The position numbers and the translations under genes were made by a program. From the NCBI GenBank assembly GCA_964016885.1, contig OZ024740.1:261392001-261456000 (forward strand): DNA of 64,000 nt. Reading direction: 5' to 3'. Of the stretch, positions 10,885 to 63,584 are shown piece by piece. The notes below the pieces were generated by a model. The model was not told where the DNA came from. It saw only the letters and a list, made by a program, of their open reading frames with translations, and searched no databases. Origin of the DNA: Eledone cirrhosa (lineage: Eukaryota). The first letter of the stretch is position 1, and each line of letters opens with the position of its first letter.

Positions 10885-11020
10885 TATATATATATTACTA
10901 GCTGGCCCATCTGGCTGGTGCCCGGCTACCATTGGCGTGTTTCTATGGTATCCAGATATATATATATAGCTGACGTACCTAGCTTCGCTTGGATAAACAG
11001 ATGATAAGTTGTCTGTGTTG

Positions 11021-11641
11021 TACAGTATTATTGTTGAAAATATATAGTACGGTATTACTGGTGATAATATATAGTATAGTATTACTGTTGAAAATATATA
11101 GTACAGTATTACTGTTGAAAATATATAGTATAGTATTACTGTTGAAAATATATAGTATAGTATTACTGTTGAAAATATATAGTACAGTATTACTGTTGAA
11201 AATATATAGTATAGTATTACTGTTGAAAATATATAGTATAGTATTACTGTTGAAAATATATAGTATAGTATTACTGTTGAAAATATATAGTACAGTATTA
11301 CTGTTGAAAATATATAGTATAGTATTACTGTTGAAAACATGTAGTATAGTATTACTGTTGAAAATATATAGTACAGTATTACTGTTGAAAATATATAGTA
11401 TAGTATTACTGTTGAAAATATATAGTATAATATTAATTTTGAAAACTACTGTATTACTATTGAAAATATATAGTATAGTATTACTGTTGAAAATATATAG
11501 TACAGTATTACTGTTGAAAATATATAGTATAGTACAATATTACTGTTGAAAATACAGTATAATATTACTGTTGAAAACTTATAGTATTACTGTTGAAAAT
11601 ATATAGTATAATACAGTATTACTGTTGAAAATATATAGTAC
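11021..11641. repeat. 27-bp satellite array 1 (TATATAGTAYAGTATTACTGTTGAAAA)
   Basis: Tandem 27-bp units, visible as the 9-aa periodicity of the spurious ORFs. Bounded by (C)TAGCTGACGTACC / CTAGCAGAATGGTCTGGCGTTGCTCGGG, which resemble Helentron-type ends. Confidence 0.95.
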
Positions 11642-15250: not shown

Positions 15251-15624
15251 CGCATGGTGTCAATTCAGAACCGCCTCGAACTGGTTACTTCTGGCTTGTG
15301 CAAGGTGTCTCTATAGCAACCAGCGATTTCCTCGGCCTCAGTGACCAAAGTCAGTGGAGAAGGGAAGGTAATGTTTCTATAGCGACAGTGTTTCTCTTGG
15401 TAGTACCAAAGTGGAGAAAGGAAGGGGAAGGTAATATTTCTGTAGCACGTGTTTTAGCGTCTATTCACTCTCTCTCTCTCTCCCTCTCTCTCTCCCTCTC
15501 TCCCTCCAGCTATCCCCCTCTTGTAGTCTGTCTCTTTCTTTCACTCTCACTCTCTCTCTACGCATGTGTTTCCACTGTCGGACAGACAGACAGAGAAATT
15601 GCTGGTTATATATATAAGTAGATA

Positions 15625-16248
15625 GTACAGTATTACTGTTGAAAATATATAGTATAGTATAGTATTACTTTTGAAAATATGTAGTATAGTATTACTGTTG
15701 GAAATATATAATATAGTATTAATATTGAAAATATATAGTATAGTATAGTATTACTGTTGAAAATATATGGTATAATATTACTGTTGAAAATATATAGTAC
15801 AGTATTACTGTTGAAAATATATACTACAGTACAGTATTACTGTCTAAAATATATAGTGTAGTACAGTATTACTGTTGAAAATATATAGTATAGTATTACT
15901 GTTGAAAATATGTAGTACAGTATTACTGTTGAAAATATATAGTATAGTATTACTTTTGAAAATATATAGTATAGTATTACTGTTGAAAATATATAGTATA
16001 GTATCACTGCTGAAAATATATAGTATTACTGTTGAAAATATATAGTATAGTATTAATGTTGAAAATATATAGTACAGTATTACTGTTGAAAATATATACT
16101 ACAGTACAGTATTACTGTTGAAAATATATAGTGTAGTACAGTATTACCGTTGAAAATATATAGTATAGTATAGTATAGTATTACTGTTGAAAATATGTAG
16201 TATAGTATTACTGTTGAAAATATATAGTACAGTACTACTGTTGAAAAT
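15625..16248. repeat. 27-bp satellite array 2
   Basis: Same unit as 11021-11641 but more diverged. Preceded by (GACA)n...TATATATAAGTAGAT and followed by the CTAGCAGAAAAACCGCC...GGCGGTTTTCTGCTA hairpin. Confidence 0.92.
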
Positions 16249-16904
16249 AAGTACACGAATATATAATTATATATACTAGCAGAAAAACCGCCCTTCAGGC
16301 GGTTTTCTGCTATCATATATAGTGTGCATATTGGTATTATACGCAAATATATATGTATATAGATATAATATTAGGGATACTATTTATGGTTATGTATATA
16401 TTAAAACTTTTTATAGTTATGTATATTTTAAACCCTAAACAGTAAAGGTCAGTAATTTATTACTACCTTATTACCAGTAAGATAAATAGCTCAATGTAAT
16501 AACATCAGTTGTTGTACAGAGCTGTTATATAACGCATACACTAACTACTAGACCTGACTATCAAACTATCCTCTTGCATTATCTGTGTTATCTGCCGAAT
16601 GTATTTTAATTTTAATTTTTATTTTTATTTTTATTTTGATTTTGAATTTGAATTGCTGTACAAAAATAGTATAGTATAATATATGCCACTCCACTGTACA
16701 TCAATATATATATATGTATCTGTATGTCTCTTGCGTTGGAAAGGAGGTCAATTATGTGTACAAACATTGAAAAATGCTCCGAAGATTCCAAGCCTAAGTT
16801 TGGATGAAACAATTGTAAGTGAATAAATGCTTTGAACATAGCTTTGATTCTTGTGAATTCTATATGTATATAGATATATGTAAATTGAAAAGTAAATTGA
16901 CAAT

Positions 16905-21971: not shown

Positions 21972-22507
21972 TTCTTTCATAATTTCTTTCATAATAAGGA
22001 ACATTCCATATCGTCCATTGTGCAATTATTCATCCTTTCAATCTTAAGAATGGTTTACAGATTTTGAAAGTTTCATATATCGTAGCCATTTGTAGTTTAT
22101 GAATAAAGAACTGCGTTCTTTCTCCCAGAATTCAAGTTCAGACATTCTTTGGTCTAGCTGGGCTGGTGTATAACCCGTAGCTTCAATAATAATGGATATG
22201 AAGCTGAACGTATATTTTGGGTACAGGTTCTGCAAACTCCTCATTAATGGTCCGTAGGTATCCTTCTCTCTCGTATTGTATCTTTCTGACTACATTGACA
22301 CCGAGTGGGCAGCAGCTGACTTCTACAATAGAGCATGTTTTCAATCTGTGATCCCAAACAACAATATCAGGTTGGTTGTGTTTTAATTTAGGGTCAATTT
22401 TTATATTTAAGTTCCAGCGATATTCTGATACCCACCAGTCTCAATATAACCATTACTATTTGTTCTTACTTTCGTCATTCGTAAGGCATTCCAAACAGCC
22501 CAGGATC
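21972..22507 (-). mobile_element. Old R4/Dong-like LINE 3' fragment abutting (TATG)n
   Basis: Minus strand MRSLQNLYPKYTFSFISIIIEATGY...FLRLKG* is homologous to the RLE domain at 45899-46387. Confidence 0.85.
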
Positions 22508-22562
22508 TATGTATGTATGTATGTATGTATGTATGTATGTATGTATGTATGTATGTATGTAT

Positions 22563-23170
22563 GTCAGGTCACCAGTTGGTGCTACTGGTAACATGTATTC
22601 CAGTACAACCTGTCCCATGGTCGGGTCGTTGGCGACTAAACTGGCAATCCCACCAAGGTTTCTTGCTGAGGAGGGCGACTTTGGACATCCTGCAGGACTA
22701 AAAACAAAACCTGTCAAAGGGCAAAGGAGCTCTTAAGAGTCAATGGCCATCCAAAATCACCGGGAGAGATGACCCCTTAGCCTTTGTCAAGGCAGAATTC
22801 TAGGAGAAGGAAAACTCTGATATAACACCTGCAACCCTGATGGTATCCAATGATGTTGACTTGTTCTTCTTTTTGGTAAATATCATCTTGGTTAAGAGAG
22901 TGGGACTGGCTTTGTGCAGTGCCTTTGCTCACTATAAAAGCTTCACGGCACAGGCATTGCTTTATATCTGGAGATCTCTCTGCACTTGTCGTCACATGGT
23001 ACCATGGGCCCAGCACTACGTGTCAATAATTGTCACAAGTGTAGTTTTTGTACCAGAGTTTTCAAGTCGCTGGCTGGACTAAAAAGTCACACTTGTTCAG
23101 CGCATCGGTAGGGGTTCTCCTACATGGATATAAAGTAGTGGCCGTACTCGAAAACGAATTGGCAGCCACC
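22563..23170 (+). mobile_element. 608-bp non-autonomous RTE-derived element (family A), copy 1
   Basis: Starts GTCAGGTCACCAG and ends GGCAGCCACC, with (TATG)n on both sides. Near-identical to five other full copies. Confidence 0.93.
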
Positions 23171-23263
23171 ATGTATGTATGTATGTATGTATGTATGTAT
23201 GTATGTATGTATGTATGTATGTATGTATGTATGTATGTATGTATGTATGTATGTATGTATGTA

Positions 23264-24915
23264 TTATTTTTAGCACATGGAATGTAATCGGAAGGCATGG
23301 GGTGGGAAAGTGTAACAACAATGGTATGCTCCTGCTGCAGATGTGGGAGGAGCTGTATTACCAACACCATGTTCCAACAAAAGAAAAATTTAAGACCACA
23401 TGGATGCATCCTGCATCTAAGGAATGGCATCTTTTGGACTACGTCCAAGTTAGGATGCGTGACAGACAGGATGTGCAGTGTGTTCGTGCTCTTCGTGGAG
23501 CTGAGTGCTGGACGGACCACCGCCTGGTACGCGCAAAAGTGAAACTAATTACTAAACGTAAAATCCGGGCTCCTGGGAAGAGGACATTGCAAGAAGAGAT
23601 GCAGGTTGCAAATCTTGGTGAGGATGGGCCGACCCTTAAAAAGTCGGTTTATGATGTAGGCAGGCGTGTTCTGGGATTGGTGCAGAGAAAACATCAAGAC
23701 TAGTTTAATGAGAATGATGAACATATAGAAGATTTGTTGGCTGATAAGAGGCGTGCTTTGTCACGCTACTTGACGGCAAAACCACAGGAGAAGAATATGT
23801 TGTATAAGGAACTTAAGGATGTGAAATCACGTGTTAGGCGGAGTCTTTCTCAGATGAAGGATCAGTGGTGGAGTGAGAAGGCTGATGAGATATAAACTGC
23901 GCCAGATTCCAATAACACAAAGCTGTTGTACAGTCTCTTGCGTGAAGTTTATGGACCGTCTTCTTCTCTGGTAACACCGCTTCGCAGCAAGGATGGCAAA
24001 GAACTTCTTCGTGACTCACAAGGAATTTTACGAAGGTGGCGAGAGCACTTTCATGAGCTTTTGAATCAGCCGTCTGTCGTCAGTGAAGATTTCCTCAATC
24101 TCATTCCAGAAAGTCCTGTGAAAGTAGCTCTCGCAGAACCTCTGACGCTTGTGGAGGTTGCAGTGACTATCTCGAAGCTGAACAGTGGACGGTCTCCAGG
24201 TATGGATGGCATACATGCAGAGCTCCTACAATATGGCGGTGAGAGACTCCTGCAACATCTTCACTCTTTGTTTGGCTATGGGCTAATGAATCCGTACCTG
24301 AGGACTGGAGAGATGCAGTAATGGTGGTCTTGTAATGGTGGAAAAGGTAACAGGAATGACAGAGGTATATCATTGCTTTCTGTCGTAGGGAAAGTTTTAT
24401 GTAGGGTGCTTCTGGACCGTCTGCTGACACACATTGCAGATTGTGTTCTTCCTGAAAGTCAATCTGGTTTTCGTGCTGGACGCGGCACTACTGATATGAT
24501 CTTCTCAGCTAGACATCTCCAGGAGAAGTGCATGGAACAACGTTTGGATGTGTATCAGGTTTTTGTCGATCTGACAAAAGCTTTCGATACTGTTAACAGA
24601 AATGCATTATGGAAGGTTCTCCAGAAACTTGGTTGCCCTGATAAGTTCCTTGCTTTAGTTAGGTCTTTCCATGACGACATGAAGGCTTGGGTTAATGTCG
24701 GCGCCTATCTCAGTAAAAAATGGAGTGAAACAGGGGGATATTACAGCACCGACCCTGTTTGCCATATACTTTGCAATGGTTTTCTATATTGCATTCAGGA
24801 ATTGCGAGCATCCGATATCGAACCTCAGGCAGCATATTTAACATCAGGCGCTTTTCTGCAAAAACAAAAGTATGTACATCAATCATAAGAGACCTCTTGT
24901 ATGCAGATGATTGCT
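23264..24915 (+). mobile_element. RTE (BovB/AviRTE-like) LINE fragment from late APE to RT YADD, cut by a Penelope-like element
   Basis: TTWMHPASKEWHLLDY, WTDHRLV, GRSPGMDGI, PESQSGFRAGRGTTDMIF, FVDLTKAFDTV and RDLLYADD. Starts directly after (TATG)n and is the same family as 43482-45794. Confidence 0.92.
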
Positions 24916-26447
24916 CGATAAGGTCAGTCCGTCGTCGCGGTATATTCCCGTGTGGAAGTCCGGGAATCTAACACGTAATATATCTAAAATAAATAGGCCA
25001 ACCAAATCGCATACGTCAGCTCTGTCAAACGATCCCATGGAGACATCGTTGGCCTATTTATTTTAGATATATTACGTGTTAGATTCCCGGACTTCCACAC
25101 GGGAATATACCGCGACGACGGACTGACCTTATCGTACCATAAAAGTGGTCACGACCTCGACCGGTTTAAAAAAGACTTAGCTTCTACCTTCAATGAGTTA
25201 GGACTTAGGATAACAGTAGCTACCAACCTCTCTAGCGTAGATTTCTTAGACATTAATTTAGACCTTCGCACACGCACCTACAGACCCTTCCATAAGCTAA
25301 ACGAAAAACTCAATTACATTCACAAGGACTCATGCCACCCTCCCACTGTTTTTAGAAACTTCGTAAATAATATCAGTACTAGAATCTCAAACCTCTCCTC
25401 TAATAAGGCTATCTTTGACAGGGCGGCACCCTACTATAACACGACGTTGGCTAAAAGCGGCTTCTCACAACCTATCACTTACTCTCCCACTATCAACAAC
25501 AGCAATGAGAAAAGAAAGCGTAACAATAGAAAACTATCTGGTTCTCTCCCCCTTCTCACTCAATGTAAAACCAATGTAGGCAAAACATTTCTAGCCCTCT
25601 TAGATAGACACTTCCCCATAGGTCATAAATACCGCTCCATCTTTAACCGACACAAAGTAAAACTAGGTTACTCCTGCGCTTAGAACATGAAGGCCCACAT
25701 CACCAACAGCCCTAAGAGGAACACCCCACCAGGGTGCTCTTGCCGTAATCCCGACGCTTGTCCCCTTCAACAGCAATGCAACACACCCGCTGTAATTTAT
25801 GAAGATGTGGTCACTTCCAACCGACCAAATCAACCACAAGAGGTCAAATCCTATGTGGGTATGGCGGAGGGCCGATTTAAGGAACGCCTCCTGAACAACC
25901 AGTCGACCTTTAGGTACCCGGACAGACGTTCATCCACGAAACTCGCGAGCCACGTATGGTCCCTCAAGGATTCAAGTATAGACTACTCCATTCAATGGAA
26001 AGCCATCACTAAGTCCAAGCCATACGCAAGGGGAAATCCGTCGTGTGGACTATATCATGATGAACGAATAAATATTCTAAAGAGATTATGCAATAGTGAT
26101 TGCCTAAACACGAGAAATGAATTCTTCACACGTTGTCCACACGTCTCGAAACACCTCTTACATAACTACAAAACTCCGGATTGAATCACAACATCCTAAT
26201 TTTCTTATCAACTTGAAACTTTTCGGACTTTCGCAGTTATCTCCCTTACACCTCTCGTACGCTTTTTAGTATTGCCTGTGTGAAGTGACGGTTTCTGCGC
26301 ATGCGCGTTCATACGGTTGTCCTTCCTGTTCCGTATAACCATGTCCATTAAGATCTGAGGATCCGTTAAGGTGAAACAATTGTTCTCGGTATGGTGAACT
26401 AACTGTTGTGTAACCACTTCTACCTAACTCGTCCCATGGACTGAGTG

Positions 26448-30819: not shown

Positions 30820-31980
30820 TTAGACGGGTTGTTCCGTTTGAGGCAAGTCGGGTCAGGTGATAGTGTCTTACTAATATAGAACTGTTTCTAGCTTGGTTCT
30901 ACGGCTGATTCTAGCCTTTCTAACGCCAACCACTTTTACAGTGTGTGTTGGGTGCTTTTTATCGTGACTCTTACACGACCATTTTACAGTGTGGGCTGGG
31001 CACTTTTTGTTGTGACAACTACACGACCACTTTACAGTGTGGGCTGGGCACTTTTGTTGTGATAACTACACGACCACTTTACAGAGTGGGCTGGGCACTA
31101 TTTGTTGGGACAACTACACGACCACTTTACAGTGTGGACTGACTGCTTTTTGATACCAACAAAGCAACTTTACAGTGTAAGGGTGATGTGAACAGAGTAT
31201 GCCGGCTTTATTTCTTTCCAATCTTTGCAGATCCTCTGCACACAATGCACAGGTCTCACTACCATGTAACATTTCTGTTCATATACATGTATTGTACAAT
31301 CTGCCCTTCATTTTACGGGGAAAACCTTTTGTAGCTAGCAGCGGTAGTAGCTCCCTGAACGTTTTCCATCCCATTCTTACTCTGGCTACTGTACTTTCGG
31401 AACACCCTCCTCTACTACTAATTAGGTCACTCAGATAACGGGAAGTATCGACTATTTCTACAGAACCGTCTGGGTATTTGAAGGAGCTAGTATCCTGTAG
31501 ATACTTGCTATTACTACACCTGAGCATCGGCCACATATAGAACTTACGTTTTTTTTTATAGATTGCCTGTGATCCCACATCTTTTATGTACCCATACCTA
31601 GCATTTGGGATATAGAATGGAATTTCTACCTACTCCTTTCTTGCACATTGTGCAAGGCCATTTCCCTGATGGAATCTGGGCCATATTTACCTTTCTACAT
31701 ACTAGGGCTTTTTTCTTTGACAAGTTGACTTTAAGACCTTTTGATTCTAGGCCATGCTTCAAGGTGTGGCATTTCTTCTTTAATTCCTACCATCGTTTCA
31801 GCTATGAGGATTAGATAATCTGCATGCAGAAATTCTCATGGGCAGCCAGTCTTAAACTCCTGTTATAGCCTTTTGGGCAATAATAAACAGGAGATGGCTA
31901 AAGACCGAGCCCTGGTGAACTCATACTTGCACGCTAATTTTTTCACTATAGTCGTTGTTAATCCTAATCTTGCTTGGATG
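30820..31980 (-). mobile_element. Decayed RTE LINE with an internal 48-bp tandem repeat (30927-31180)
   Basis: Minus strand RVRMGWKTFRELLPLL, KTGCP and QGSVFS. ACCACTTTACAG units at 30978, 31026, 31073 and 31121. Confidence 0.8.
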
Positions 31981-37690: not shown

Positions 37691-38127
37691 TTATTTAGTC
37701 AATAATTTAATATGAGTGGTGGTAAGAAACTCTCATGAGAGATGGACAGCAGACAGTCTTCACAGAATAAACTCCCTTAAGCCAGTGTTTCGGCCCTTAA
37801 CTTCAATAAGGATATTTTTAAGGATAAAAATAAGGATATTTTTGAAAATTAATATCTTAATGTGGCATAAATCTTACTTTCCTTTTCAAATCTAAGATGC
37901 TTCAGTCGTATTCTAACATGGCTTCGCTAAGAATAAAATCATAGCAGCAAATGTTTTGTTTTTCAAGTTTCATTTTAACTCATAAAATTAATGAAAGTAA
38001 ATCAAACCCCACCCCGAGCTGTATAATTCATGGTATGTATGTATGTATGTATGATGTATGTATGTATGTATGTATGTATGTATGTATGTATGTATGTATG
38101 TATGTATGTATGTATGTATGTATGTAT

Positions 38128-38735
38128 GTCAGGTCACCAGTTGGTGCTACTGGGAACATGTATCCCAGTACAACCTGTCTCATGGTCGGGTCGTTGGCGA
38201 CTAAACTGGCAACCCCACCAAGGTTTCTTGGCGAGGAGGGTGACTTTGGACATCCTGCAGGACTAAAAACAAAACCTGTCAAAGGGCAAAGGAGCTCTTA
38301 ACAGTCAATGGTCATCCAAAATCACCGGGAGAGATGACCCCTTAGCCTTTGTCAAGGCAGAATTCTAGGAGAAGGAAAACTCTGATATAACACCTGCAGC
38401 CCTGATGGTATCCAATGATATTGACTTGTTCTTCTTTTTGGTAAATATCATCTTGGTTAAGAGAGTGGGACTGGCTTTGTGCAATGCCTTTGCTCACTAT
38501 AAAAGCTTCACGGCACAGGCATTGCTTTATATCTGGAGATCTCTCTGCACTTGTCGTCACATGGTACCATGGGCCCAGCACTATGTGTCAATAATTGTCA
38601 CAGCTGTAGTGTTTGTACCAGAGTTTTCAAGTCGCTGGCTGGACTAAAAAGTCACACTTGTTCAGCGCATCGGTAGGGGTTCTCCTACATGGATATAAAG
38701 TAGTGGCCGTACTCGAAAACGAGTTGGCAGCCACC
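38128..38735 (+). mobile_element. Family A 608-bp element, copy 2
   Basis: Same termini as copy 1 and flanked by (TATG)n. Confidence 0.93.
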
Positions 38736-38833
38736 ATGTATGTATGTATGTATGTATGTATGTATGTATGTATGTATGTATGTATGTATGTATGTATGTA
38801 TGCATGTATGTATGTATGTATGCATGTATGTAT

Positions 38834-40912
38834 GGAATGATTGTGGGAATTACAGAGGTATATCATTGCTTTCTGTCGTAGGGAAAGTTTTATGTAGGGT
38901 GCTACTGGACCGTCTGCTGACACACATTGCAGATTGTGTTCTTCCTGAAAGTCAATCTGGTTTTCGTGCTGGACGCGGCACTACTGATATGATCTTCTCA
39001 GATAGACAGCTCCAGGAGAAGTGCATGGAACAAGGTTTGGATCTGTATCAGGTTTTTGTCGATCTGTCGAAAGCTTTCGATACTGTTATCAGATATGCAT
39101 TATGGAAGGTTCTCCAGAAACTTGGTTGCCCTGATAAGTTCCTTGCTTTAGTTAGGTCTTTTCTTTCCATGACGACATGCAGGCTTGGGTTAATGTCGGA
39201 GGTAACATGTCGGAGCCTCTTATCTCAGTAAAAAATGGAGTGAAACAGGGGGATATTCCAGCACCGACCCTGTTTGCCATATACTTTGCAATGGTTTTCT
39301 GTATTGCATTCAGGAATTGCGAGCATGGTGTTTACATCCGATATCGAACCTCAGGCAGCATATTTAACATCAGGCGCTTTGCTGCAAAGACAAAAGTATG
39401 TACATCAATCATAAGAGACCTCTTGTATGCAGATGATTGCGATCTTGTAGCGCACACAGAGAGTGATATGCAGCACAGTTTGAATGCATTTTCTGACGCT
39501 TGCACTGCCCTAGGATTGACTGTCAGTCTCAAGAAAACCGTCATGTACCAACCTGCCCCCGGTAAGCAGTACACTGAAGCAAATATCTATGTATATGGTA
39601 AACGTCTTGGAGTGGTTGATCAGTTTGTCTACCTGGGAAGCACTGTCAATCGATACAGCAACCTTGACAGTGAAATCTCACTTAGGATTAGGAAAGCAAG
39701 TGATGCTATCGGAAAGCTAGAAAGGCGACTCTGGGGTCGGCGAGACATATGCAGGAGGACAAAGGTAAAGGTGTACAAGACATGTGTGCTCTCTTGTCTT
39801 CTTTATGCCTGCGAGACCTGGGTCACATATCGACGCCACCTTAAGCAATTGGAGCGTTTCCATCAGATGTGTCTCAGACGGATCCATGGCGTTCACTGAA
39901 GGGACCACATCAGTGATGTCGAGATTTTGGAAAGCTCTATGTGTGACAGTATAGAAGCTCTTGTGCTTAAGCAACGACTCCGTTGGAGTGGTCACCTTGC
40001 CAGGATGAAGGATTCTAGAATACCAAAACAACTCTTTTATGGAGAGTTGGTTAAAGGAAAACGACCGCCACATAAACCAAAAAAGAGGTATAAGGATTCC
40101 TTGAAAGCCTCTCTGCTGTTACATGGGAAAATATTGCTGCTGATCGTAATAAATGGAGAAAACTGTATATGAGGGAAAAGTTGCCTTTGAGGCATCTCGA
40201 ATCGCATACGAGAAAGTAAAGCGGGATGTGAGGAAGGGCATTGCTGTTGCACTTCCAGACGGCGAGGGTCCTCCTATGGTGCTGACATGCAGCGTCTGTG
40301 CGAGACTCTGCCTAAGCAAAGCTGGACTCGAAAGTCATCTTCGCAGTCATAAAGTAAGACCAGTGGTTGACTACTAGGCTGCTGTTGGAGATGCTACTCA
40401 TCATGCTTGCCAAACAGGTGGTAGAGAATGTAAATCAGCAGGAGGGCTCAAGCGACATGCAAAAGTACATGAACTCCAACCACAGCCGGCTATTCCCAGT
40501 GAATGTTTTGGTTGCCGACCCTGTGCAAGACATTTTAGATCATGGGCTGGGCTAAAAAGCCACATTCCATCGCAGCGCTGTTAGTTGCTATCGTGTGTGT
40601 GTATAGATATGTTTATGTGTGTGCGTGTGTGTGTATATATATATGTATATGTATATTATTATTGTTGTTGTTGTCGTTGTTATTGTTGTTGTTATTGTTA
40701 TTGTTATTATTGTTATTAATGTATATGTGTGTATGTATATGTATATGTGTGTATGTATATATATATGTGTGTATATATGTATATGTATGTGTGTATATAT
40801 ATATTTCTTTATTTTTCTTTTTCTTTTCTTTTTTATTTATTTATTAATATATATATATATATATTTTACTCCTCGTGCAATGGCCATACTCGATAACGAG
40901 GGGGCAGCCATC
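38834..40912 (+). mobile_element. 5'-truncated zinc-finger RTE LINE, frameshifted copy
   Basis: Colinear with 43678-45794 but with frameshifts and stops. Ends GGCAGCCATC(ATGT)n. Confidence 0.93.
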
Positions 40913-40975
40913 ATGTATGTATGTATGTATGTATGTATGTATGTATGTATGTATGTATGTATGTATGTATGTATG

Positions 40976-41177
40976 ATCTAGAGATCTCTCTGCACTTGTC
41001 ACATGGTACCATGGGCCCAGCACTATGTGTCAATAATTGTCACAAGTGTAGTGTTTGTACCAGAGTTTTCAAGTCGCTGGCTGGACTAAAAACTCACACT
41101 CGTTTAGCGCATCGGTAGAGGTTATCCTACATGGATATAAAGTATTGCCCGTACTCTAAAACGAGTTGGCAGCCACC
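40976..41177 (+). mobile_element. Family A element, 5'-truncated
   Basis: Last ~200 bp only, including [19 protein letters not shown] and the terminal hairpin. Confidence 0.9.
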
Positions 41178-41563
41178 ATATATATATATATATATATATG
41201 TATGTATATATATATGTATATATATATGTATATATATATATATATATATATTATGTATATATATATATTATGTATATATATATGTATGTATATATATATA
41301 TATATATTATGTATATATATGTATGTATATATATATGTATGTATATATATATATATATATATTATGTATATATATGTGTGTATGTATATATATATATATG
41401 TATGTATATATATATATATGTATGTATATATATATATGTATGTATATATATGTACGTATATGTATGTATGTATGTATGTATATATATGTATGTATGTATA
41501 TATATATATGTATGTATGTATATGTATGTATGTGTGTATATATATATGTATGTATGTATATAT

Positions 41564-42170
41564 GTCAGGTCACCAGCTTGTGCTACTGGTAACATGTATC
41601 CCAGTACAACCTGTCTCATGGTCGGGTCGTTGGCGACTAAACTGGCAACCCCCCAAGGTTTCTTGGTGAGGAGGGTGACTTTGGACATCCTGCAGGACTA
41701 AAAACAAAACCTGTCAAAGGGCAAAGGAGCTCTTAAGAGTCAATGGTCATCCAAAATCACCGGGAGAGATGACCCCTTAGCCTTTGTCAAGGCAGAATTC
41801 TAGGAGAAGGAAAACTCTGATATAATACCTGCAACTCTGATGGTATCCAATGATGTTGACTTGTTCTTCTTTTTGGTAAATATCATCTTGGTTAAGAGAG
41901 TGGGACTGGCTTTGTGCAGTGCCTTTGCTCACTATAAAAGCTTCACGGCACAGACATTGCTTTATATCTGGAGATCTCTCTGCCCTTGTCGTCACATGGT
42001 ACCATGGGCCCAGCACTATGTGTCAGTAATTGTCACAAGTGTAGTGTTTGTACCAGAGTTTTCAAGTCGCTGGCTGGACTAAAAAGTCACACTCGTTCAG
42101 CGCATCAGTAGGGGTACTCCTACATGGATATAAAGTAGTGGCTGTACTCGAAAACGAGTTGGCAGCCACC
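41564..42170 (+). mobile_element. Family A element, copy 3
   Basis: Full length with an (ATGT)n tail. Confidence 0.93.
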
Positions 42171-42240
42171 ATGTATGTATGTATGTATGTATGTATGTAT
42201 GTATGTATGTATGTATGTATGTATGTATGTATGTATGTAT

Positions 42241-42848
42241 GTCAGGTCACCACTTGGTGCTACTGGTAACATGTATCCCAGTACAACCTGTCTCATGGTC
42301 GGGTCGTTGGCGACTAAACTGGCAACCCCACTAAGGTTTCTTGGTGAGGAGGGTGACTTTGGACATCCTGCAGGACTAAAAACAAAACCTGTCAAAGGGC
42401 AAAGGAGCTCTTAAGAGTCAATGGCCATCCAAAATCACCGGGAGAGATGACCCCTTAGCCTTTGTCAAGGCAGAATTCTAGGAGAAGGAAAACTCTGATA
42501 TAACACCTGCAACCCTGATGGTATCCAATGATGTTGACTTGTTCTTCTTTTTGGTAAATATCATCTTGGTTAAGAGAGTGGGACTGGCTTTGTGCAGTGC
42601 CTTTGCTCACTATAAAAGCTTCACGGCACAGGCATTGCTTTGTATCTGGAGATCTCTCTGCACTTGTCATTACATGGTACCATGGGCGCAGCACTATGTG
42701 TCAATAATTGTCACAAGTGTAGTGTTTGTACCAGAGTTTTCAAGTTGCTGGCTGGACTAAAAAGTCACACTCGTTCAGCGTATCGGTAGGGGTTCTCCTA
42801 CATGGTTATAAAGTAGTGGCCGTACTCGAAAACGAGTTGGCAGCCACC
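42241..42848 (+). mobile_element. Family A element, copy 4
   Basis: Full length with (TATG)n on both sides. Confidence 0.93.
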
Positions 42849-42862
42849 ATGTATGTATGTAT

Positions 42863-43375
42863 GTTTCTTGGTGAGGGGGGAGACTTTGGACATCCTTCAG
42901 AACTAAAAACAAAACCTGTCAAAGGGCAAAGGAGCCCTTAACAGTCAATGGCCATCCCAAATCACCGGGAGAGATGACCCCTTAGCCTTTGTCAAGGCAG
43001 AATTCTAGGAGAAGGAAAACTCTGATATAACACCTGCAACCCTGATGGTAACCAATGATGTTGACTTGTTCTTCTTTTTGGTACATATCATCTTGGTTAA
43101 GAGAGTGGGACTGGCTTTGTGTAGTGCCTTTGCTCTCTATAAAAGCTTCACGGCACAGGCATTGCTTTATATCTGGAGATCTCTCTGCACTTGTCATCAC
43201 ATGGTACCATGGGCCCAGCACTATGTGTCAATAATTGTCACAAGTGTAGTTTTTGTACCAGAGTTTTCAAGTCGCTGGCTGGACTAAAAAGTCACACTCG
43301 TTCAGCGCATCGGTAGTGGTTCTCCTACATGGATATAAAGTAGTGGCCGTACTCGAAAACGAGTTGGCAGTCACC
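42863..43375 (+). mobile_element. Family A element, 5'-truncated by ~95 bp
   Basis: Starts at GTTTCTTGGTGAGG and has the normal 3' end. Confidence 0.92.
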
Positions 43376-43481
43376 ATGTATGTATGTATGCATGTATGCT
43401 TGTTTGTATGTATGTATGTATGTATGTATGTATGTATGTATGTATGTATGTATGTATGTATGTATGTATGTATGTATGTAT

Positions 43482-45449
43482 GCAGTGGCTATTTCGAAGC
43501 TGAACAGTGGAAGATCTCCAGGTATGGATGGCATACATGCTGAGCTCCTACAATATGGTGGTGAGAGACTCCTGCAACATCTTCACTCTCTGTTTGGAGG
43601 GATATGGGCTAATGAATCCGTGCCTGAGGACTGGAGAGATGCAGTAATGGTGGTCTTGTACAAGGGAAAGGGTAACAGGAATGATTGTGGGAACTACAGA
43701 GGTATATCATTGCTTTCTGTCGTAGGGAAAGTTTTATGTAGGGTGCTTCTGGACCGTCTGCTGACACACATTGCAGATTGTGTTCTTCCTGAAAGTCAAT
43801 CTGGTTTTCGTGCTGGACGCGGCACTACTGATATGATCTTCTCAGCTAGACAGCTCCAGGAGAAGTGCATTGAACAGGGCTTGGATCTGTATCAGGTTTT
43901 TGTCGATCTGACAAAGGCTTTTGATACTGTCAACAGAGATGCATTATGGAAGGTTCTCCAGAAACTTGGTTGCCCTGATAAGTTCCTTGCTTTAGTTAGG
44001 TCTTTCCATGACGACATGAAGGCTTGGGTTAATGTCGGAGGTAACATGTCGGAGCCTATCTCAGTAAAAAATGGAGTGAAACAGGGGGATATTCCCGCAC
44101 CGACCCTGTTTGCCATATACTTTGCAATGGTTTTCTGTATTGCATTCAGGAATTGCGAGCATGGTGTTTACATCCGATATCGAACCTCAGGCAGCATATT
44201 TAACATCAGGCGCTTTGCTGCGAAGACAAAAGTATTTACATCAGTCATAAGAGACCTCTTGTATGCAGATGATTGCGATCTTGTAGCGCACACAGAGAGT
44301 GATATGCAGCACATTTTGAATGTATTTTCTGACGCTTGCACTGCCCTGGGTTTGACTGTCAGTCTCAAGAAAACCGTCGTCATGTACCAACCTGCCCCTA
44401 GTAAGCAGTACACTGAACCAAACATCTATGTGTATGGCAAACGACTCGGAGTGGTTGATCAGTTTGTCTACCTGGGAAGCACTGTCAATCGATACGGCAA
44501 CCTTGACGGTGAAATCTCACTTAGGATTAGGAAAGCAAGTGATGCTTTCGGAAAGCTAGAAAGGCGACTCTGGGGTCGGCGAGACATATGCAGGAGGACA
44601 AAGGTAAAGGTGTACAGGGCATGTGTACTCTCTTGTCTTCTTTATGCCTGCGAGACCTGGGTCACATATCGACGCCACCTTAAGCAATTGGAGCGTTTCC
44701 ATCAGATGTGTCTCAGACGGATCCATGGCGTTCACTGGAGGGACCACATCAGTGATGTCGAGATTTTGGAAAGCTCTATGTGTGACAGTATAGAAGCTCT
44801 TGTGCTTAAGCAACGACTCCGTTGGAGTGGTCACCTTGCCAGGATGAAGGATTCTAGAATACCAAAACAACTCTTCTATGGAGAGTTGGTTAAAGGAAAA
44901 CGATCGCCACATAAACCAAAAAAGAGGTATAAGGATTCCTTGAAAGCCTCTCTGAAAGACGCTAACATCTCTGCTGATACATGGGAAAATATTGCTGCTG
45001 ATCGTAATAAGTGGAGAAGGACTGTATATGAGGGAAAAGTTGCCTTTGAGGCATCTCGAATCGCACACGAGAAAGTAAAGCGGGACGTGAGGAAGGGCAT
45101 TGCTGCTGCACTTCCAGACGGCGAGGGTCCTCCTATGGTTCTGACATGCAGCGTCTGTGCGAGACTCTGCCTAAGCAAAGCTGGACTCGAAAGTCATCTT
45201 CGCAGTCATAAAGTAAGACCAGTGGTTGACTACCAGGCTGCTGTTGGAGATGTTACTCATCATGCTTGCCAAACATGTGGTAGAGAATGTAAATCAGCAG
45301 GAGGGCTCAAGCGACATGCAAAAGTACACGAACTCCAACCACAGCCGACTATTCCCAGTGAATGTTTTGGTTGCCGACTCTGTGCAAGACATTTTAGATC
45401 ATTGGCTGGGCTAAAAAGCCACATTCCATCGCAGCACTGTTAGTTGCTA

Positions 45450-45499
<50 letters not shown>

Positions 45500-45562
45500 G
45501 CTTATGTGCGTGCGTGTGTGTGTATATATATATGAATATGTATATTATTATTGTTGTTGTCG

Positions 45563-45607
<45 letters not shown>

Positions 45608-45794
45608 GTTATTAATGTATGTGTGTATATATGTGTGAGTGTATGTGTATGTATGTGTGTATGTATATATGTATGTATATATATATATATTTTTTTTATT
45701 TTAAATTTATTTATTATTATTATTATTATTATTTTTTTTATTTATTTTTTTTTTTTGTGCAATGGCCATACTCGATAACGAGGGGGCAGCCATC
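43482..45794 (+). mobile_element. Young 5'-truncated RTE (BovB/AviRTE-like) LINE with an uninterrupted RT and three C-terminal C2H2 zinc fingers
   Basis: Open frame of ~650 codons to the stop at 45443: NYRGISLL, FVDLTKAFDTV, GVKQG, LYADD, FVYLGS, RLRWSGH, then CSVC..HLRSH, CQTC..HAKVH and CRLC..HIPSQH. The 3' UTR ends GGCAGCCATC(ATGT)n. Confidence 0.95.
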
Positions 45795-45817
45795 ATGTAT
45801 GTATGTATGTATGTATG

Positions 45818-48800
45818 TTTTCTCTTTCTCTTAATTTCGAGTATATTTTTTTGACCGGCCACCTTCCTGGTGGCAAGGTTGTAAAAGAAAAGAAATTGTC
45901 ATCCCTTGAATCGCAAGAATATTTTGCAAATTTTGAAGGTGCCAGCTATCGCAGCCATTTGCAGACTATGAATTAGGGAGCTGCGCTTTTTGTCCGCAAA
46001 TCCAAGTTCAGTCATACTTTGGTCCAAGCGGGTCGGTATATAACCCGTAGCACCAATAATGATGGGTATGAAGCTAAAGGTGTATCTTGGATACTGGGTT
46101 TGTAAACTCCTCATCAATGGTCCGTAGATGTCCTCCTTCTCCTGTATTTTTCTGACAACGTTTACATCAAGTGGGCAGCTGATCTCCACAACAGAACACG
46201 TTTTCAATGTGTGGTCCCAAACTACAATATCAGGCCGGTTGTGCTTTAATTTGGTGGCAGTTTTTATTTTCAGGTTCCACCAGTATTCCTTAGTGCCATC
46301 TGTCTCAATATATTCTTCCTCGTTTGTTGTTAATTTTGTTTTCCGAAGTGCGTTCCAGATGGTTCTAGCTATCTCATCGTGTCTCATGGGAGGTAGTAGC
46401 GAGATGACATTCTTTCGCAGCTGGCAACAATGTGGTTTACATCCTCGATCTTTGTTTTACATAGCCTACATTTATTGTCAGCTGCTGGCCCTCCTCTTTT
46501 GTGCAGCAGATATTTGGTAGGGAGTTCTTGTTCCTGTATTGCATAGAGATATCCCTCAAGGTGTGATGTCATAAACTTGTCGGAACCCCATGCCAGGCTT
46601 TTTGAGTGGTTTATCCCCTCTATGGTCTGTGTTTTACGCCTCAAGTATCCATGCACAACTTTTTCTGTAAATTGGTCAATTTTCTTATCATGTTTGAACA
46701 TTGAATAGGATCTTCCGATTTCTCTGGGTGAGAGATTTATATCAGGCTTTATTCCATATCACTCCTCCAGATCAGTCGCTATTCTAATGATATTTCTTTT
46801 TTCATGCTCATGAACCTGGGCAAGATGGTTGCCAACCTTTTTCCTCTGTTGAAGGTGTTGCTTCAGTGTTACTATCCGGGTCTCATATGTTGTTAATATT
46901 GATTTTAGACCCCGGCCACCTTCCTTGCGTGAGAAGTATAGCCTATCCACATCACCATTGATGTTAAAGTTGCCAGTAACACTGAGAAGTTTTCGAGTTC
47001 TAACATCCATCTCACTTAGTTCTTGCAATGACCAGTTCAGTAGGCCAAATGTTGGCGTTAGAATTGGCACAGCATAAGTATTGTGGGCAATGTATTTGTT
47101 GTATGCTGACAGTTCTGATGACCATATATTCTTTACTCTTCTGAGGTATTCAGTTCTGGTTCTCTCCTTATTTATGGGTCCATCATATCTGACATTCTCA
47201 TCCTGTCCAAGATATCTGTAGTTGTCACCTGACTGCAGAGGTTGTATTGTCAGGCCGTTCATCTCTAGATTTCTAGAGGAGGGCACAGCTCTTCCACGTT
47301 TTACTGCCAAATATGCACACTTGGACTCACCAAATTTCATTTTGATGTCGGTTGAAAATTGTGTAATGAGGTCCAATTGTTTCTTGATGTCATTGATATT
47401 TGGCCCATACAACTTCAGGTCATCAACAAAGAAAAGATGGGAGATACTTCTGGGCCCACTTCTTTGTCCACCTTGTTTCCTGAGTAGGTAAGATAGTGGA
47501 TTCAGTGAGAGAACGAAGAGTAGCACTGACAAGCTATCACCCTGAAAGATGCCCTTCTGGTAATGTATCTTATCAGTCTTAACCTGCTCCTTCTCACCTC
47601 TAAGGATCAAAATGGTGTACCAGTTCTTGGTCAGGCGTTCAACAGCAGCTACCAGTGATTGTGGGACTTTAGCTAACTGTAAAGCCTTAATAATCCACCC
47701 ATGAGGTACACTATCAAATGCTTTTTGATAGTCCAGCCACACGACAGTCATGTTTCTACGATTCTTTGTTGTTTTTTCCTGAATCATTTTGTTAGTTAGT
47801 AGGTGATCTATGCAACCCCACACCTCCCTCTTTCCACCAGCTTGCTCAGGTGTTATGATGTTGTTGGTAGCACAGTGATCCTGTAAGAACAGGTTAAGGC
47901 ACCCAGTATATAATTTATACATGATGTTTTGGCAGGCAATTGGACGGTAATTTTTAGCAAGGGTGGTTTGGCTATTTTTGGGAATGAGGAGAGTAGTGGC
48001 AGTTGATAACCATCTGGGCAGTTCTTGTGTGCCCTTAATGGTTTCTGTAAACAGCCGTATGAGATCTTGCCGATAGAAAGTGAAATTCTTCAACCAGTAT
48101 CCTGTAATGAGGTCTGGGCCTGGTGATTTCCTATTCGACATTTTCTGTAGAGCTGTTTCCAGTATTGACCCATCTATGTCATATTGTTTTGTCTGGACAT
48201 GTTGGCAGTAGTCCTGTTCCAGTTCTTTTAGCCAATTAGCTTGTCTGTTGAATCCGTCATCCGTTTCCCATACAGATCTCCAGTAGCTCTCAACCTGTTC
48301 TTTTGAAGGGGTGTCGTTTACAGGGATTGAGCTTTTGCCACCGAAGCTGCGATAAACTGATTTAGGATCTCTGGCAAACAATCTATTTAGCACTTGTCGT
48401 TTATGTGCTGTTGACTTATATTTTAGTCTTTCTGTTGCAGCTGTGAGTTGTTGTTTCAACTGGTGTAATTTGGAGTTCAAAGTTTTAAATTTTGTATCTC
48501 CAAATCGTCTCTAACTTTTTCTTTAGGTCTTCCTGGTGTCGTGTGAAGTTGCTCTCTATGTTGCATTTCATAACGACTGCGATGTGTGAGATACTTCGTC
48601 TCAGGGACAAAATTTTGGTTTTTAAATTTCGCATCCACGCTGGTTCAGGCTTTCTGTTTGTATCTTGATTGCGTGGTTTTAGATGTGTGTTACATGATAG
48701 CAATGTGACAGCTGAAACATATAACAAAACATTAAGCGTTTCAAATGTCGTTTCTACACCTTTAGATCGTATAGCCTTCAGATAATTGCCAGCTATTTCG

Positions 48801-48999
48801 TTCACCGCTTCCAATTCCAATTTAGTGGGTTCTTTACTGACTCTAGTGTTGTATGGTCTGTCACTCACATTAAGGCTGTGTATCTCTTGAAACATATCGT
48901 TCCATATCACTTGTAGGGTGCCCACAAGTTTTTGGTGCTCTGTTTGTTCAGTAGAGTCATGAATTTCAGCCTCGTTGTTGATGTGGTGACAATTACTAC
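45818..48999 (-). mobile_element. R4/Dong-clade LINE (RT + CCHC + restriction-like endonuclease), 5'-truncated, within (TATG)n
   Basis: KSPGPD, NYRPIAC, WLDYQKAFDSVPH, GIFQGDSLS and HLFFVDDLKLY; CRLC..E..NHIVASC; RHD; RPDIVVWD..VEISCP..EK..Y. A few frameshifts. Confidence 0.93.
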
Positions 49000-49086
49000 T
49001 ATGTATGTATGTATGTATGTATGTATGTATGTATGTATGTATGTATGTATGTATGTATGTATGTATGTATGTATGTATGTATGTAT

Positions 49087-49695
49087 GTCAGGTCACCAGT
49101 TGGTGCTACTGGTAACATGTATCCCAGTACAACCTGTCTCATGGTCGGGTCGTTGGCGACTAAACTGGCAACCCCACCAAGTTTTCTTGGTGAGGAGGGT
49201 GACTTTGGACATCCTGCAGGACTAAAAACAAAACCTGTCAAAGGGCAAAGGAGCTCTTAACAGTCAATGGCCATCCAAAATCACCGGGAGAGATGACCCC
49301 TTAGCCTTTGTCAAGGCAGAATTCTAGGAGAAGGAAAACTCTGATATAACACCTGCAACCCTGATGGTATCCAATGATGTTGACTTGTTCTTCTTTTTTG
49401 TAAATATCATCTTGGTTAAGAGAGTGGGACTGGCTTTGTGCAGTGCCTTTGCTCACTATAAAAGCTTCACGGCACAGGCATTGCTTTATATCTGGAGATC
49501 TCTCTGCACTTGTCGTCACATGGTACCATGGGCCCAGCACTATGTGTCAATAATTGTCACAAGTGTAGTGTTTGTACCAGAGTTTTCAAGTCACTGGCTG
49601 GACTAAAAAGTCACACTCGTTCAGCGCATCGGTAGTGGTTCTCCTACATGGATATAAAGTAGTGGCCGTACTCGAAAAACGAGTTGGCAGCCACC
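49087..49695 (+). mobile_element. Family A element, copy 5
   Basis: Full length with (TATG)n on both sides. Confidence 0.93.
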
Positions 49696-49795
49696 ATGTA
49701 TGTATGTATGTATGTATGTATGTATGTATGTATGTATGTATGTATGTATGTATGTATGTATGTATGTATGTATGTATGTATGTGTGTATGTTTGT

Positions 49796-50403
49796 GTCAG
49801 GTCACCAGTTGGTGCTACTGGTAACATGTATCCCAGTACAACCTGTCTCATGGTCGGGTCGTTGGCGACTAAACTGGCAACCCCACCAAAGTTTCTTGGT
49901 GAGGAGGGTGACTTTGGACATCCTGCAGGACTAAAAACAAAACCTGTCAAAAGGCAAAGGGGCTCTTAAGAGTCAATAGCCATCCAAAATCACCGGGAGA
50001 GATGACCCCTTAGCCTTTGTCAAGGCAGAATTCTAGGAGAAGGAAAACTCTGATATAACACCTGCAACCCTGATGGTATCCAATGATGTTGAATTGTTCT
50101 TCTTTTTGGTAAATATCATCTTGGTTAAGAGAGTGGGACTGGCTTTGTGCAGTGCCTTTGCTCACTATAAAAGCTTCACAGCACAGGCATTGCTTTATAT
50201 CTGGAGATCTCTCTGCACTTGTCGTCACATGTTACCATGGGCCCAGCACTATGTGTCAATGATTGTCACAAGTGTTGTGTTTGTACCAGAGTTTTCAAGT
50301 CGCTGGCTGGACTAAAAAGTCACATTCGTTCAGCGCATTGGTAGGGGTTCTCCTACATGGATATAAAGTAGTGGCCGTACTCGAAAACGAGTTGGCAGCC
50401 ACC
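49796..50403 (+). mobile_element. Family A element, copy 6
   Basis: Full length with (TATG)n-like tracts on both sides. Confidence 0.93.
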
Positions 50404-50420
50404 ATGTATGTATGTATGTA

Positions 50421-51013
50421 TACTACTGGTAACATGTAACCCAGTACAACCTGTTGCATGGTCGGGTCGTAGGCGACTAAACCGGCAACCCCACCAAGTT
50501 TACTGGGTGAGGAGGGTGATTTTGGACACCCTGCAGGACAAAAAGCAAAACCTGACAAAAGGGCGGAAGAACTCATAAGAGTCAACGGCCATCCTACCAA
50601 AATGTGTAAATATGTATATATATGTATGCATGTGTATATATGTATATAATGTATGCATGTGAATGTATATGTGTGGGGACATAGAAATAATCGGGCTGGA
50701 TACCCGATCACGTGGTTAAACCACTGGGATTGAAGGACCCCTAGCCCTTGTCAGAGCATTCTTCTTGGAGAAGACAAGCCAGGAAACTGGGCTAACTCCG
50801 ACATAAAACCTGCGGCTCAGAAGTTACCGATGATGTTGATCTTTTCCTCTTTTCGGGTTATAGCTACTGTCACTCAGAGAATGGGATTGGCTCAGTGCAC
50901 AGGCTTTCTTCACTTTAAAAATATTCTTCACGCACAGGCATTGCACGATAGTATTATTAATAATGTTATATCATGCAATGGCCATACTCGATTACGAGGG
51001 GGCAGTCAGCATC
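50421..51013 (+). mobile_element. Related short element (family B): homologous RTE-type 5' region joined to the LINE's own 3' terminus
   Basis: The 5' part aligns by eye to family A up to GCACAGGCATTGC. The 3' end TGCAATGGCCATACTCGATTACGAGGGGGCAG matches the LINE end, followed by a short (ATGT)n tail. Confidence 0.8.
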
Positions 51014-51239
51014 ATGTATGTATGTGTGGACCAGTAACTCGCGCGGGAGTAGTAGGGGCGCCATACGGAATTTCTTAAAGCATTTTTTTTTTCATCTGGC
51101 GTATCCCATCATTTTTCATCTGGCGTATCCATCTCATCTCCGCACCTGGGTTGCAACAGGTTTCTTCCAGAGAAGGATTGAGAGAGTGAGAGAAAAGAAG
51201 TGAGAAAGAGATATAGAGCAAGCATCTACCCCAGTTCTT

Positions 51240-63055: not shown

Positions 63056-63282
63056 CACGGCACAGGCATTGCTTTATATCTGGAGATCTCTCTGCACTTG
63101 TCGTCACATGGTACCATGGGCCCAGCACTATGTGTCAATAATTGTCTCAAGTGTAGTGTTTGTACCAGAGTTTTCAAGTCGCTGGCTGGACTAAAAAGTC
63201 ACACTCGTTCAGCGCATCGGTAGGGGTTCTCCTACATGGATATAAAGTAGCGGCCATACTCGAAAACGAGTTTACAGCCACC
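63056..63282 (+). mobile_element. Family A element, 5'-truncated, in a degenerate TATG/TG tract
   Basis: CACGGCACAGGCATTGC...CAGCCACC; encodes [23 protein letters not shown]. Confidence 0.9.
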
Positions 63283-63584
63283 ATATATACACATATATAT
63301 ACATGGTACGTGAATGTGTATGGATGCATGTATATGATTATAATGTTTATATCCGTGCATGTGTAATACAAGTTACGTCTTTTAAGGGATGACGTTAAAT
63401 GCATATTTAGTATATTGTAGGTTTTTTATAGATGTGTATGTATGTGTGTATGTACGTTTATATGTGGGTGTGTATGTGTGCGCGTGTATAGATGTGTATG
63501 TATGTGCGTATATATATCTTCTTTGTGGATGTACGTGGACACGGAGGTAATTGGGCGCGTATTTGTTGGAATGTATATGAGCCA

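Follow-up and report, generated by a model that had tools for sequence, protein, structure and literature searches.

A run of eleven retroelement copies

The window analysed here comprises 64,000 nucleotides of the Eledone cirrhosa genome, positions 261392001-261456000 of contig OZ024740.1 (C1) in the 3.0-Gb assembly GCA_964016885.1. Between window positions 38125 and 51015 eleven retroelement copies follow one another, and self-alignment together with a library of window pieces showed that the spacers between them consist only of (ATGT)n or of mixed AT/ATGT tracts. The array, which extends from 38033 to 51025 with its flanking repeats, is made up of five full-length and two truncated units of a family that we call A, two 5'-truncated pieces of an RTE-type long interspersed nuclear element (LINE), one unit of a second short family, B, and one R4-like LINE on the minus strand (Table 1). 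A first-pass annotation of the window, made from the sequence alone, had listed eleven pieces, and all of them are present in the order and number that it gave. The exact-match counts of the four families lead one to expect 0.17 element ends per 13 kb, so that the probability of finding at least eleven is about 6e-17, a value that overstates the rarity of the array somewhat because the family counts are lower bounds. The array is an extreme case of a genome-wide pattern and not a tandem duplication. We regard it as likely that its eleven copies were inserted one after another into (ATGT)n, a repeat that is occupied far above chance by RTE-type and R4-like families on opposite strands.

Two statements of the first-pass annotation about this arrangement have to be narrowed. 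Most of the RTE-related pieces end in (ATGT)n, as it had said of all of them, but the unit at 40976 ends in (AT)n. The same arrangement was said to recur at 22508-24915; the order of (TATG)14, A, (TATG)22 and LINE is indeed found there, but the LINE piece lacks its 3' end, because a perfect inverted repeat of 87 nt breaks it off at 24914. A 76% R4-related piece adjoins this smaller cluster at 22030-22493, and a lone truncated A copy that ends in (AT) lies in a mixed GT/AT tract at 63056-63284.

Target preference of family A and the LINE

Exact A matches were taken in order along C1, without regard to their flanks, and the first 30 were scored for the 30 bp 5' of the element. The flank was an AT/GT-type microsatellite in 24 of them and belonged to the ATGT class in 11, while the ACAT class was found in none; among the 18 truncated copies of the sample 15 had microsatellite flanks and seven had flanks of the ATGT class. 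The background, taken from sixty evenly spaced 10-kb stretches (599,800 bases), is 9.6% microsatellite, 0.24% ATGT and 0.25% ACAT. A control short interspersed element (SINE) had such a microsatellite flank in only one of 63 copies, its ATT-rich context being left unscored. Strand asymmetry is also visible over the 40 bp upstream of 59 full-length A copies, with G exceeding C in 52 and C exceeding G in three. These results bear out the oriented (ATGT)n preference that the first-pass annotation had described.

At the 14 LINE 5' junctions that were scored by script the flank was ATGT in eight, AT in one and other sequence in five; among these last, one is an internal interruption and another a 5' inversion. 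One more copy, the fifteenth, is full-length and starts after ATGT repeats. On the 3' side, A ends are followed by (ATGT)4 in 6,516 cases genome-wide and by (AT)8 in 4,665, against background tracts numbering 22 and 1,410, respectively. Family A thus uses (ATGT)4 in preference to (AT)8 by a factor of 90 per tract (59-143 when the Poisson error of the 22 tracts is taken into account) and of 124 per site. After the terminal GCCACC, 47 of 95 A ends continued with ATGT and 42 with ATAT, and 15 of 30 LINE/B ends were followed by ATGT-class sequence. The earlier proposal of (TATG)n as the target is therefore right about a strong preference and too narrow about the range of sites: the target is an alternating AT-rich repeat with a strong, oriented bias towards ATGT, not a strictly specific sequence.

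Target-site duplication and the source of the tail

Full-length A copies begin with a TATGT of their own: ATGT stands before CAGG in 48 of 57, in 17 of these cases as an out-of-register TTATGT. Informative target-site duplications were found in 19 of 59 full-length copies, compared with 3.7 in shuffled pairs (maximum 9 in 200 shuffles). The duplications have a mode of 12 bp and all start at AT, right after the last bases of the element, which they follow without an added base in 16 of the 19 cases and with one A in the other three.

The tail of A varies with the flank. Where the 5' flank was ATGT (n=32), 25 tails read ATGTATGT and none read ATATATAT; where it was free of G (n=15), there were no ATGT tails and 12 AT tails; and where it was mixed (n=23), three tails were ATGT, five AT and 15 other. 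Family A does not write (ATGT)n; its tail is a copy of the cut target. Because the 3' tail copies the 5' flank, A renews its target through the target-site duplication of about 12 bp. This changes one half of the claim that each insertion both uses and regenerates its target: renewal takes place with each insertion, but the tail of the element is not the source of the repeat, given that no copy at a G-free site had acquired an ATGT tail. The spacing of neighbouring copies agrees with this account. The spacers at 100 of the 141 close A-to-A junctions have a mode of 16 nt (23 of 100), and only two are shorter; 16 nt is the length to be expected from a duplication of about 11 bp plus the 5-nt head.

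R4/Dong-like families on the opposite strand

The minus-strand LINE at 45820-48999 matches the RVT_1 and zf-RVT domains, and a CxxC..H..C knuckle and RPD..VVE motifs can be read by eye. We take the former to be a CCHC knuckle and the latter to be the motif of a restriction-like endonuclease, an architecture on which we call the element R4/Dong-like; its best named relative, a protein of Argonauta hians with 62% identity, carries no clade label. The family has 3,568 exact 3'-end matches in the genome. In its first 30 matches, read on its own strand, flanks of the ACAT class occurred in 16 of 18 visible 5' sides and in 24 of 30 3' sides, and ATGT occurred in none. It is the most strictly targeted family of the array, and it works on the other strand, a targeting of its own that the first-pass annotation overlooked.

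A second R4-like family, seen in the flanks of other copies, has 5,570 exact 3'-end matches and is mostly 35-53% identical to the first in protein sequence. Scored by 3' flanks only, it had ACAT repeats in 20 of 25 loci on C1 (L241-L265), and pieces of it also occur in L193, L195, L199 and L200. The RTE-type and R4-like LINEs, whose endonucleases differ, thus enter the same tracts from opposite strands, and this accounts for the minus-strand piece within the array. In one sequencing run from another organism and study, ATGTATGT was likewise the plus-strand reading of the loose ends at the 3' end of the R4-like element (37 contigs, agreement 0.71), a weak hint that R4-like targeting is not confined to one species. 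As a separate observation, the R4-like 3' region is partly present in the sequencing runs of many different organisms, and four of these runs were compared with it.

Growth of arrays and ages of their units

Most A copies are singletons: of 100 copies listed, 85 lack a listed neighbour of the family in the 1.5 kb before them. Among the 99 gaps between listed copies, 15 were shorter than 1.5 kb, against 0.7 expected, and 14 of the 15 joined copies on the same strand. Close gaps numbered 14 of 99 for A copies with (ATGT)4 tails and 0 of 99 for those with (AT)8 tails (Fisher p 7e-5), which supports the view that arrays form at (ATGT)n and not at (AT)n. Loci chosen for clustering hold mixed runs of A, LINE and B with R4-like copies on the opposite strand (L194, L196 and L200), all of them shorter than the array in the window.

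The six longer A units of the array are on average 3.35% apart, with a minimum of 2.1%, and dispersed copies differ by 3.77%; the LINE pieces at 38834 and 43483 diverge by 3.1%. Unit 42238 has copies only 0-0.16% away on other chromosomes, and for its neighbour at 41561 nothing above 98% was found among 40 scored of 3,485 candidates. Neighbours that are as divergent as dispersed copies and that differ in age point to sequential insertion. The first-pass annotation had preferred independent retrotransposition to tandem duplication and had suggested asking whether neighbouring units are closest relatives: they are not, and the truncation points that it had noted do all differ (in A, positions 407 and 99), without shared boundaries.

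The RTE-type LINE and families A and B

Family A has at least 24,549 exact 3'-end matches in the genome, and LINE and B together have 4,599. When the longest open reading frame (ORF) was taken at each of nine LINE loci, two of them (L184 and L188) had an intact frame of 1,181 amino acids with endonuclease, reverse transcriptase and three C2H2 motifs; in this single ORF Exo_endo_phos spans residues 55-276 and is followed by RVT_1 at 595-862. The plus-strand LINE of the window likewise gave reverse transcriptase and C2H2 fingers in a domain search. Homologues were marine proteins at 48-62% identity without clade names. The ends of the LINE are followed by AT/ATGT repeats. We describe it as RTE-type, an assignment by architecture.

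Family B is an internally deleted derivative: it consists of sequence from the LINE 5' untranslated region (UTR), about 90% alike, joined to the LINE 3' end, and has no ORF. Family A shares its head with B (about 87%), and its 5' 400 bp are 68-73% like B and the LINE UTR. At the 3' end its likeness to the LINE is confined to the last ~35 nt, where the two have, as read from sequence, the same terminal stem-loop shape with a swapped closing pair (GUGGC/GCCAC and AUGGC/GCCAU). Since the 3' third of A has no match in the LINE, we infer rather than observe that A uses the protein of the zinc-finger LINE.

A 110-nt head is common to A and B (window 42238-42345; L097, L102, L114, L120 and L162) and can be folded into five putative helices. 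In this model two pairs are changed on both sides between the families and 97.6% of cells are paired, although the nine sequences are in effect two lineages and the structure was drawn from the same sequences. Self-cleavage by the head is at most a lead, prompted by the 5' ribozymes that have been described in RTE elements (PMC5786205, PMC8501958). Folding of single sequences was no better than that of shuffles (z 0.38 and -0.86). A comparison of the head with Rfam gave no ribozyme family at E<=1 and only microsatellite matches to miRNA models, and a relaxed descriptor of the HDV-like nested double pseudoknot found no match in it. A ribozyme at the A/B head was rejected on these three counts.

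The sampled LINE subfamily has a different 5' end (L181:180-1750, L186 and L190): a 5' UTR of ~1.5 kb without the A/B head that carries a piece of the 190-bp SINE and looks like a 5' end replacement. An (ATT)n tract in the LINE 5' UTR (L032, L035, L037, L046 and L183) is often interrupted or preceded by other elements, and other families may target (ATT)n. Tandem arrays with a unit of ~45 bp (L096:1818-3014 and L099:1938-3013) match the first 40 bases of the 190-bp SINE and form a SINE-derived minisatellite.

Other features of the window

The units and tracts of the array are collected in Table 1 together with the smaller cluster. The inverted repeat that cuts that cluster begins a stretch at 24916-26184 in which broken frames with YRDDG and GIY-YIG-like words follow; there was no Pfam match, and the element is presumably Penelope-like. 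Tandem repeats elsewhere in the window include an 80-bp minisatellite at 3631-5667 (25.5 copies, 93% matches), 27-bp arrays at 11020-11640 and 15622-16253, and related 48-bp arrays at 287-721 and 30929-31141.

Table 1. Retroelement units and repeat tracts, in window positions.
Feature	Position	Strand	
Smaller second cluster: (TATG)14, A (22560-23173), (TATG)22, LINE piece (23268-24914) without 3' end	22508..24914	+	
(TATG)n tract, left end of array	38033..38124	+	
Family A, full length; starts TATGT-CAGG, ends GCCACC-AT	38125..38738	+	
(ATGT)n tract	38739..38833	+	
RTE-type LINE, 5'-truncated within reverse transcriptase, broken frame; 3' UTR of compound microsatellites and terminal stem-loop	38834..40915	+	
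(ATGT)15 tract	40916..40975	+	
Truncated family A unit that starts at A position 407, the most divergent of all (4.4%), with (AT)n after it	40976..41179	+	
Mixed (AT)n/(ATGT)n tract	41180..41560	+	
Family A, full length; top genomic matches 98%	41561..42173	+	
(ATGT)n tract	42174..42237	+	
Full-length family A unit of a young subfamily that has almost identical copies on other chromosomes	42238..42851	+	
Truncated family A unit that starts at A position 99, with 11 bp between it and the unit before	42863..43378	+	
(ATGT)n tract	43379..43482	+	
RTE-type LINE, 5'-truncated; open 652-aa frame with reverse transcriptase and C-terminal C2H2 zinc fingers	43483..45797	+	
(ATGT)5 tract, common tail-to-tail to LINE and R4-like element	45798..45819	+	
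R4/Dong-like LINE, 5'-truncated, broken frames; flanked on either side by (ACAT)n as read on its strand	45820..48999	-	
(ATGT)n tract	49000..49083	+	
Family A, full length	49084..49698	+	
(ATGT)n tract	49699..49794	+	
Family A, full length	49795..50406	+	
Family B: A-like 5' head, part of LINE 5' UTR and LINE 3' end; head without first ~17 nt	50421..51015	+	
Short (TATG)n tail, right end of array	51016..51025	+	

Discussion

Our findings suggest a mechanism in which the repeat is both the site of insertion and its product. By analogy with target-primed reverse transcription, the LINE's AP-type endonuclease would nick a T/A step on the ACAT (or ATAT) strand, and the RNA end (...CACC-AU) would pair with the freed primer. 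Pairing alone would be enough to fix the orientation, as two bases can pair here and only one on the opposite strand. The duplication would leave repeat on both sides of the new copy and slippage would lengthen it, turning one target into two with each insertion, while A and B would borrow the LINE protein through the common 3' stem-loop. A roughly hundredfold bias of ATGT over AT needs some further cause, because this rule of nicking and pairing treats ATGT and ATAT alike. The cause that we favour, and give about an even chance of being right, is a read-through (AUGU)n tail on the RNA that may pair with the primer: such a tail would match (ACAT)n completely, whereas with (AT)n it could form no more than wobble pairs, which agrees with the model set out in PMC6007223. 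The bias might instead, with appreciably lower probability, come from read-out of the site by the protein, through its three C-terminal zinc fingers or its endonuclease, or, less probably again, from poor access to (AT)n and later expansion of the repeat.

A more ambitious reading, which is tentative and as a whole probably goes too far, would join these elements together. The RTE would pick its site by RNA-DNA pairing of a tail that derives from its own landing site, so that the choice of target would be inherited; two LINE families with restriction-like endonucleases would have converged on (ACAT/ATGT)n from the other strand; and the microsatellite would be a safe harbour that renews itself and is shared by no fewer than five families, with some 38,000 or more recent insertions. 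On the same reading, A and B may be cut from read-through transcripts by a new structured 5' RNA.

Several observations weigh against sequential insertion into a preferred repeat. Six of the 30 A copies have no 5' microsatellite and five of the 14 LINE junctions were scored as non-microsatellite, for which reason we speak of preference rather than strict specificity. All 30 copies were taken from a single chromosome arm, where five belong to two arrays, so that not all are independent; 40 of the 59 full-length A copies have no informative duplication, many of them since their flanks are perfect repeats; the test of tail against flank covers family A only; and growth of tracts after insertion could have inflated the ATGT/AT ratio. 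The last point leads to an alternative of low probability, in which the enzyme has merely a weak taste for TA steps and the long (ATGT)n flanks grew by slippage after insertion, or insertions into microsatellites survived better. Half of the A ends do run into (AT), the flanks in the array are far longer than a 12-bp duplication, and four of 17 background (ATGT)4 fields touch an A copy, which shows that elements and tracts are entangled. The other 13 fields, however, have no A, B, LINE or R4-like copy of the window type within 250 bp (two touch the second R4-like family), and the duplications show that the repeat was present before insertion. Expansion would also leave unexplained the fixed and opposite orientations of the two LINE types, and the control SINE lacks such flanks.

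A second alternative develops the positive feedback of the first-pass annotation: every element would supply (ATGT)n from the tail of its RNA and create new targets anywhere, and arrays would grow by true positive feedback. Nearly all members of the array end in (ATGT)n, ATGT-tailed copies cluster, half of the LINE/B ends run into ATGT-class sequence and the TATGT of the head contributes one unit on the 5' side, but for A this account has already failed: none of the 15 copies with a G-free 5' flank carries a ATGTATGT tail, and the duplications follow the element with no added base or a single A. We consider it very improbable. The same is true of an origin of arrays in single events, by template jumping between RNAs or by copying of read-through multimer transcripts. 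Such events would suit the 141 close head-to-tail A junctions, against none tail-to-tail (inverted pairs may also be lost or poorly assembled), and the mixing of A, B and LINE within one run; they do not suit adjacent units of different age, such as those at 42238 and 41561, a spacer floor that equals the length of duplication plus head, a LINE of another type on the opposite strand inside the array, or singletons with the same flanks. Tandem or segmental duplication, or an assembly artefact, is scarcely credible. No short-read contig that we examined spans the array, but its A units are all at least 2.1% apart, its LINE pieces are as divergent as noted above, no two truncation points agree, and similar arrays with other contents occur at other loci. 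Sequential insertion into (ATGT)n is the reading that we retain.

The telomeric HeT-A/TART and SART/TRAS elements form oriented runs of 5'-truncated copies, and SART and TRAS are two families on opposite strands of one repeat. In contrast to telomeric arrays, those described here are interstitial, lie at tens of thousands of dispersed tracts and show no sign of a host function. The TRAS target is also given in PMC2887409. Elements without long terminal repeats that target microsatellites include Waldo (ACAY), Mino (AC), Kibi (TC), Koshi (TTC) and Dong (TAA) (PMC3812793), as well as Togen (TG) and some HERO families (PMC4640811). The families of the array resemble these in inserting into pre-existing microsatellites, and the ACAY of Waldo covers ACAT. 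None of the elements listed is an RTE, however, and the RTE-type element here takes the ATGT strand and also accepts (AT)n. The target of Dong proper is (TAA)n, whereas our Dong-like element is flanked by (ACAT)n; and, unlike the listed elements, RTE-type and Dong-like families share the same tracts and build mixed nests.

Among RTE elements, insertion sites appear not to be sequence-specific, and the tails of the elements generate microsatellites (Tay 2010, PMC2887409); a model of 2018 lets the 3' repeat of the RNA steer the choice of site (Nishiyama and Ohshima, PMC6007223). Our elements share with RTE-clade LINEs and SINEs a single ORF with AP endonuclease and reverse transcriptase, short duplications and 3' microhomology (PMC2887409, PMC6007223, PMC13295347); duplications of about 12 bp were measured in A, and short 3' repeats were found at LINE ends. 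They differ from the RTEs of PMC2887409 in that A draws its tail from the target and the preference is about hundredfold, non-specificity being a usual trait of the clade and not a criterion for it. The closest architecture described is that of RTE-2_OV from Octopus vulgaris, with one ORF that encodes endonuclease, reverse transcriptase and a C2H2 zinc finger and a 3' UTR that is mostly microsatellite (Petrosino 2022, PMC9115989). The zinc-finger LINE has the same architecture and a microsatellite 3' UTR, but its ORF is 1,181 amino acids long compared with 1,109. It is not RTE-2_OV at the DNA level, because the five primers published there match L184/L181 at best with 5-7 mismatches. A zinc-finger RTE of octopus and active Dong-R4 families have been reported (PMC9115989, PMC13282606), with no target preference described in the sections concerned. 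Bipartite non-autonomous RTEs are also known (Kojima 2018, PMC5786205). Like these, B combines part of the LINE 5' UTR with the LINE 3' end and lacks an ORF; A has the B-like head, a part that resembles the LINE 5' UTR and the same 3' stem-loop shape, but its 3' third is unmatched in the LINE.

In the open literature, with Repbase, Dfam and subscription journals not covered, we found neither an RTE nor a Dong-like element described as targeting (TATG)n, and no account of cephalopod arrays of this kind. An RTE with so strong a bias, and two unrelated LINE types that occupy one repeat on opposite strands, were not found there either. Short-read callers probably filter out insertions between microsatellites or beside older copies, which would bear on counts of somatic RTE insertions in the octopus brain (PMC9115989). 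A (TATG)n marker in these animals would frequently have a repeat beside it. Thousands of natural insertions are available for testing whether the RNA tail of an RTE steers its choice of site, as proposed in PMC6007223. Unrelated LINE types share one repeat on opposite strands, away from telomeres and ribosomal DNA, and the RTE clade, usually described as non-specific, would be added to the LINEs that favour microsatellites.

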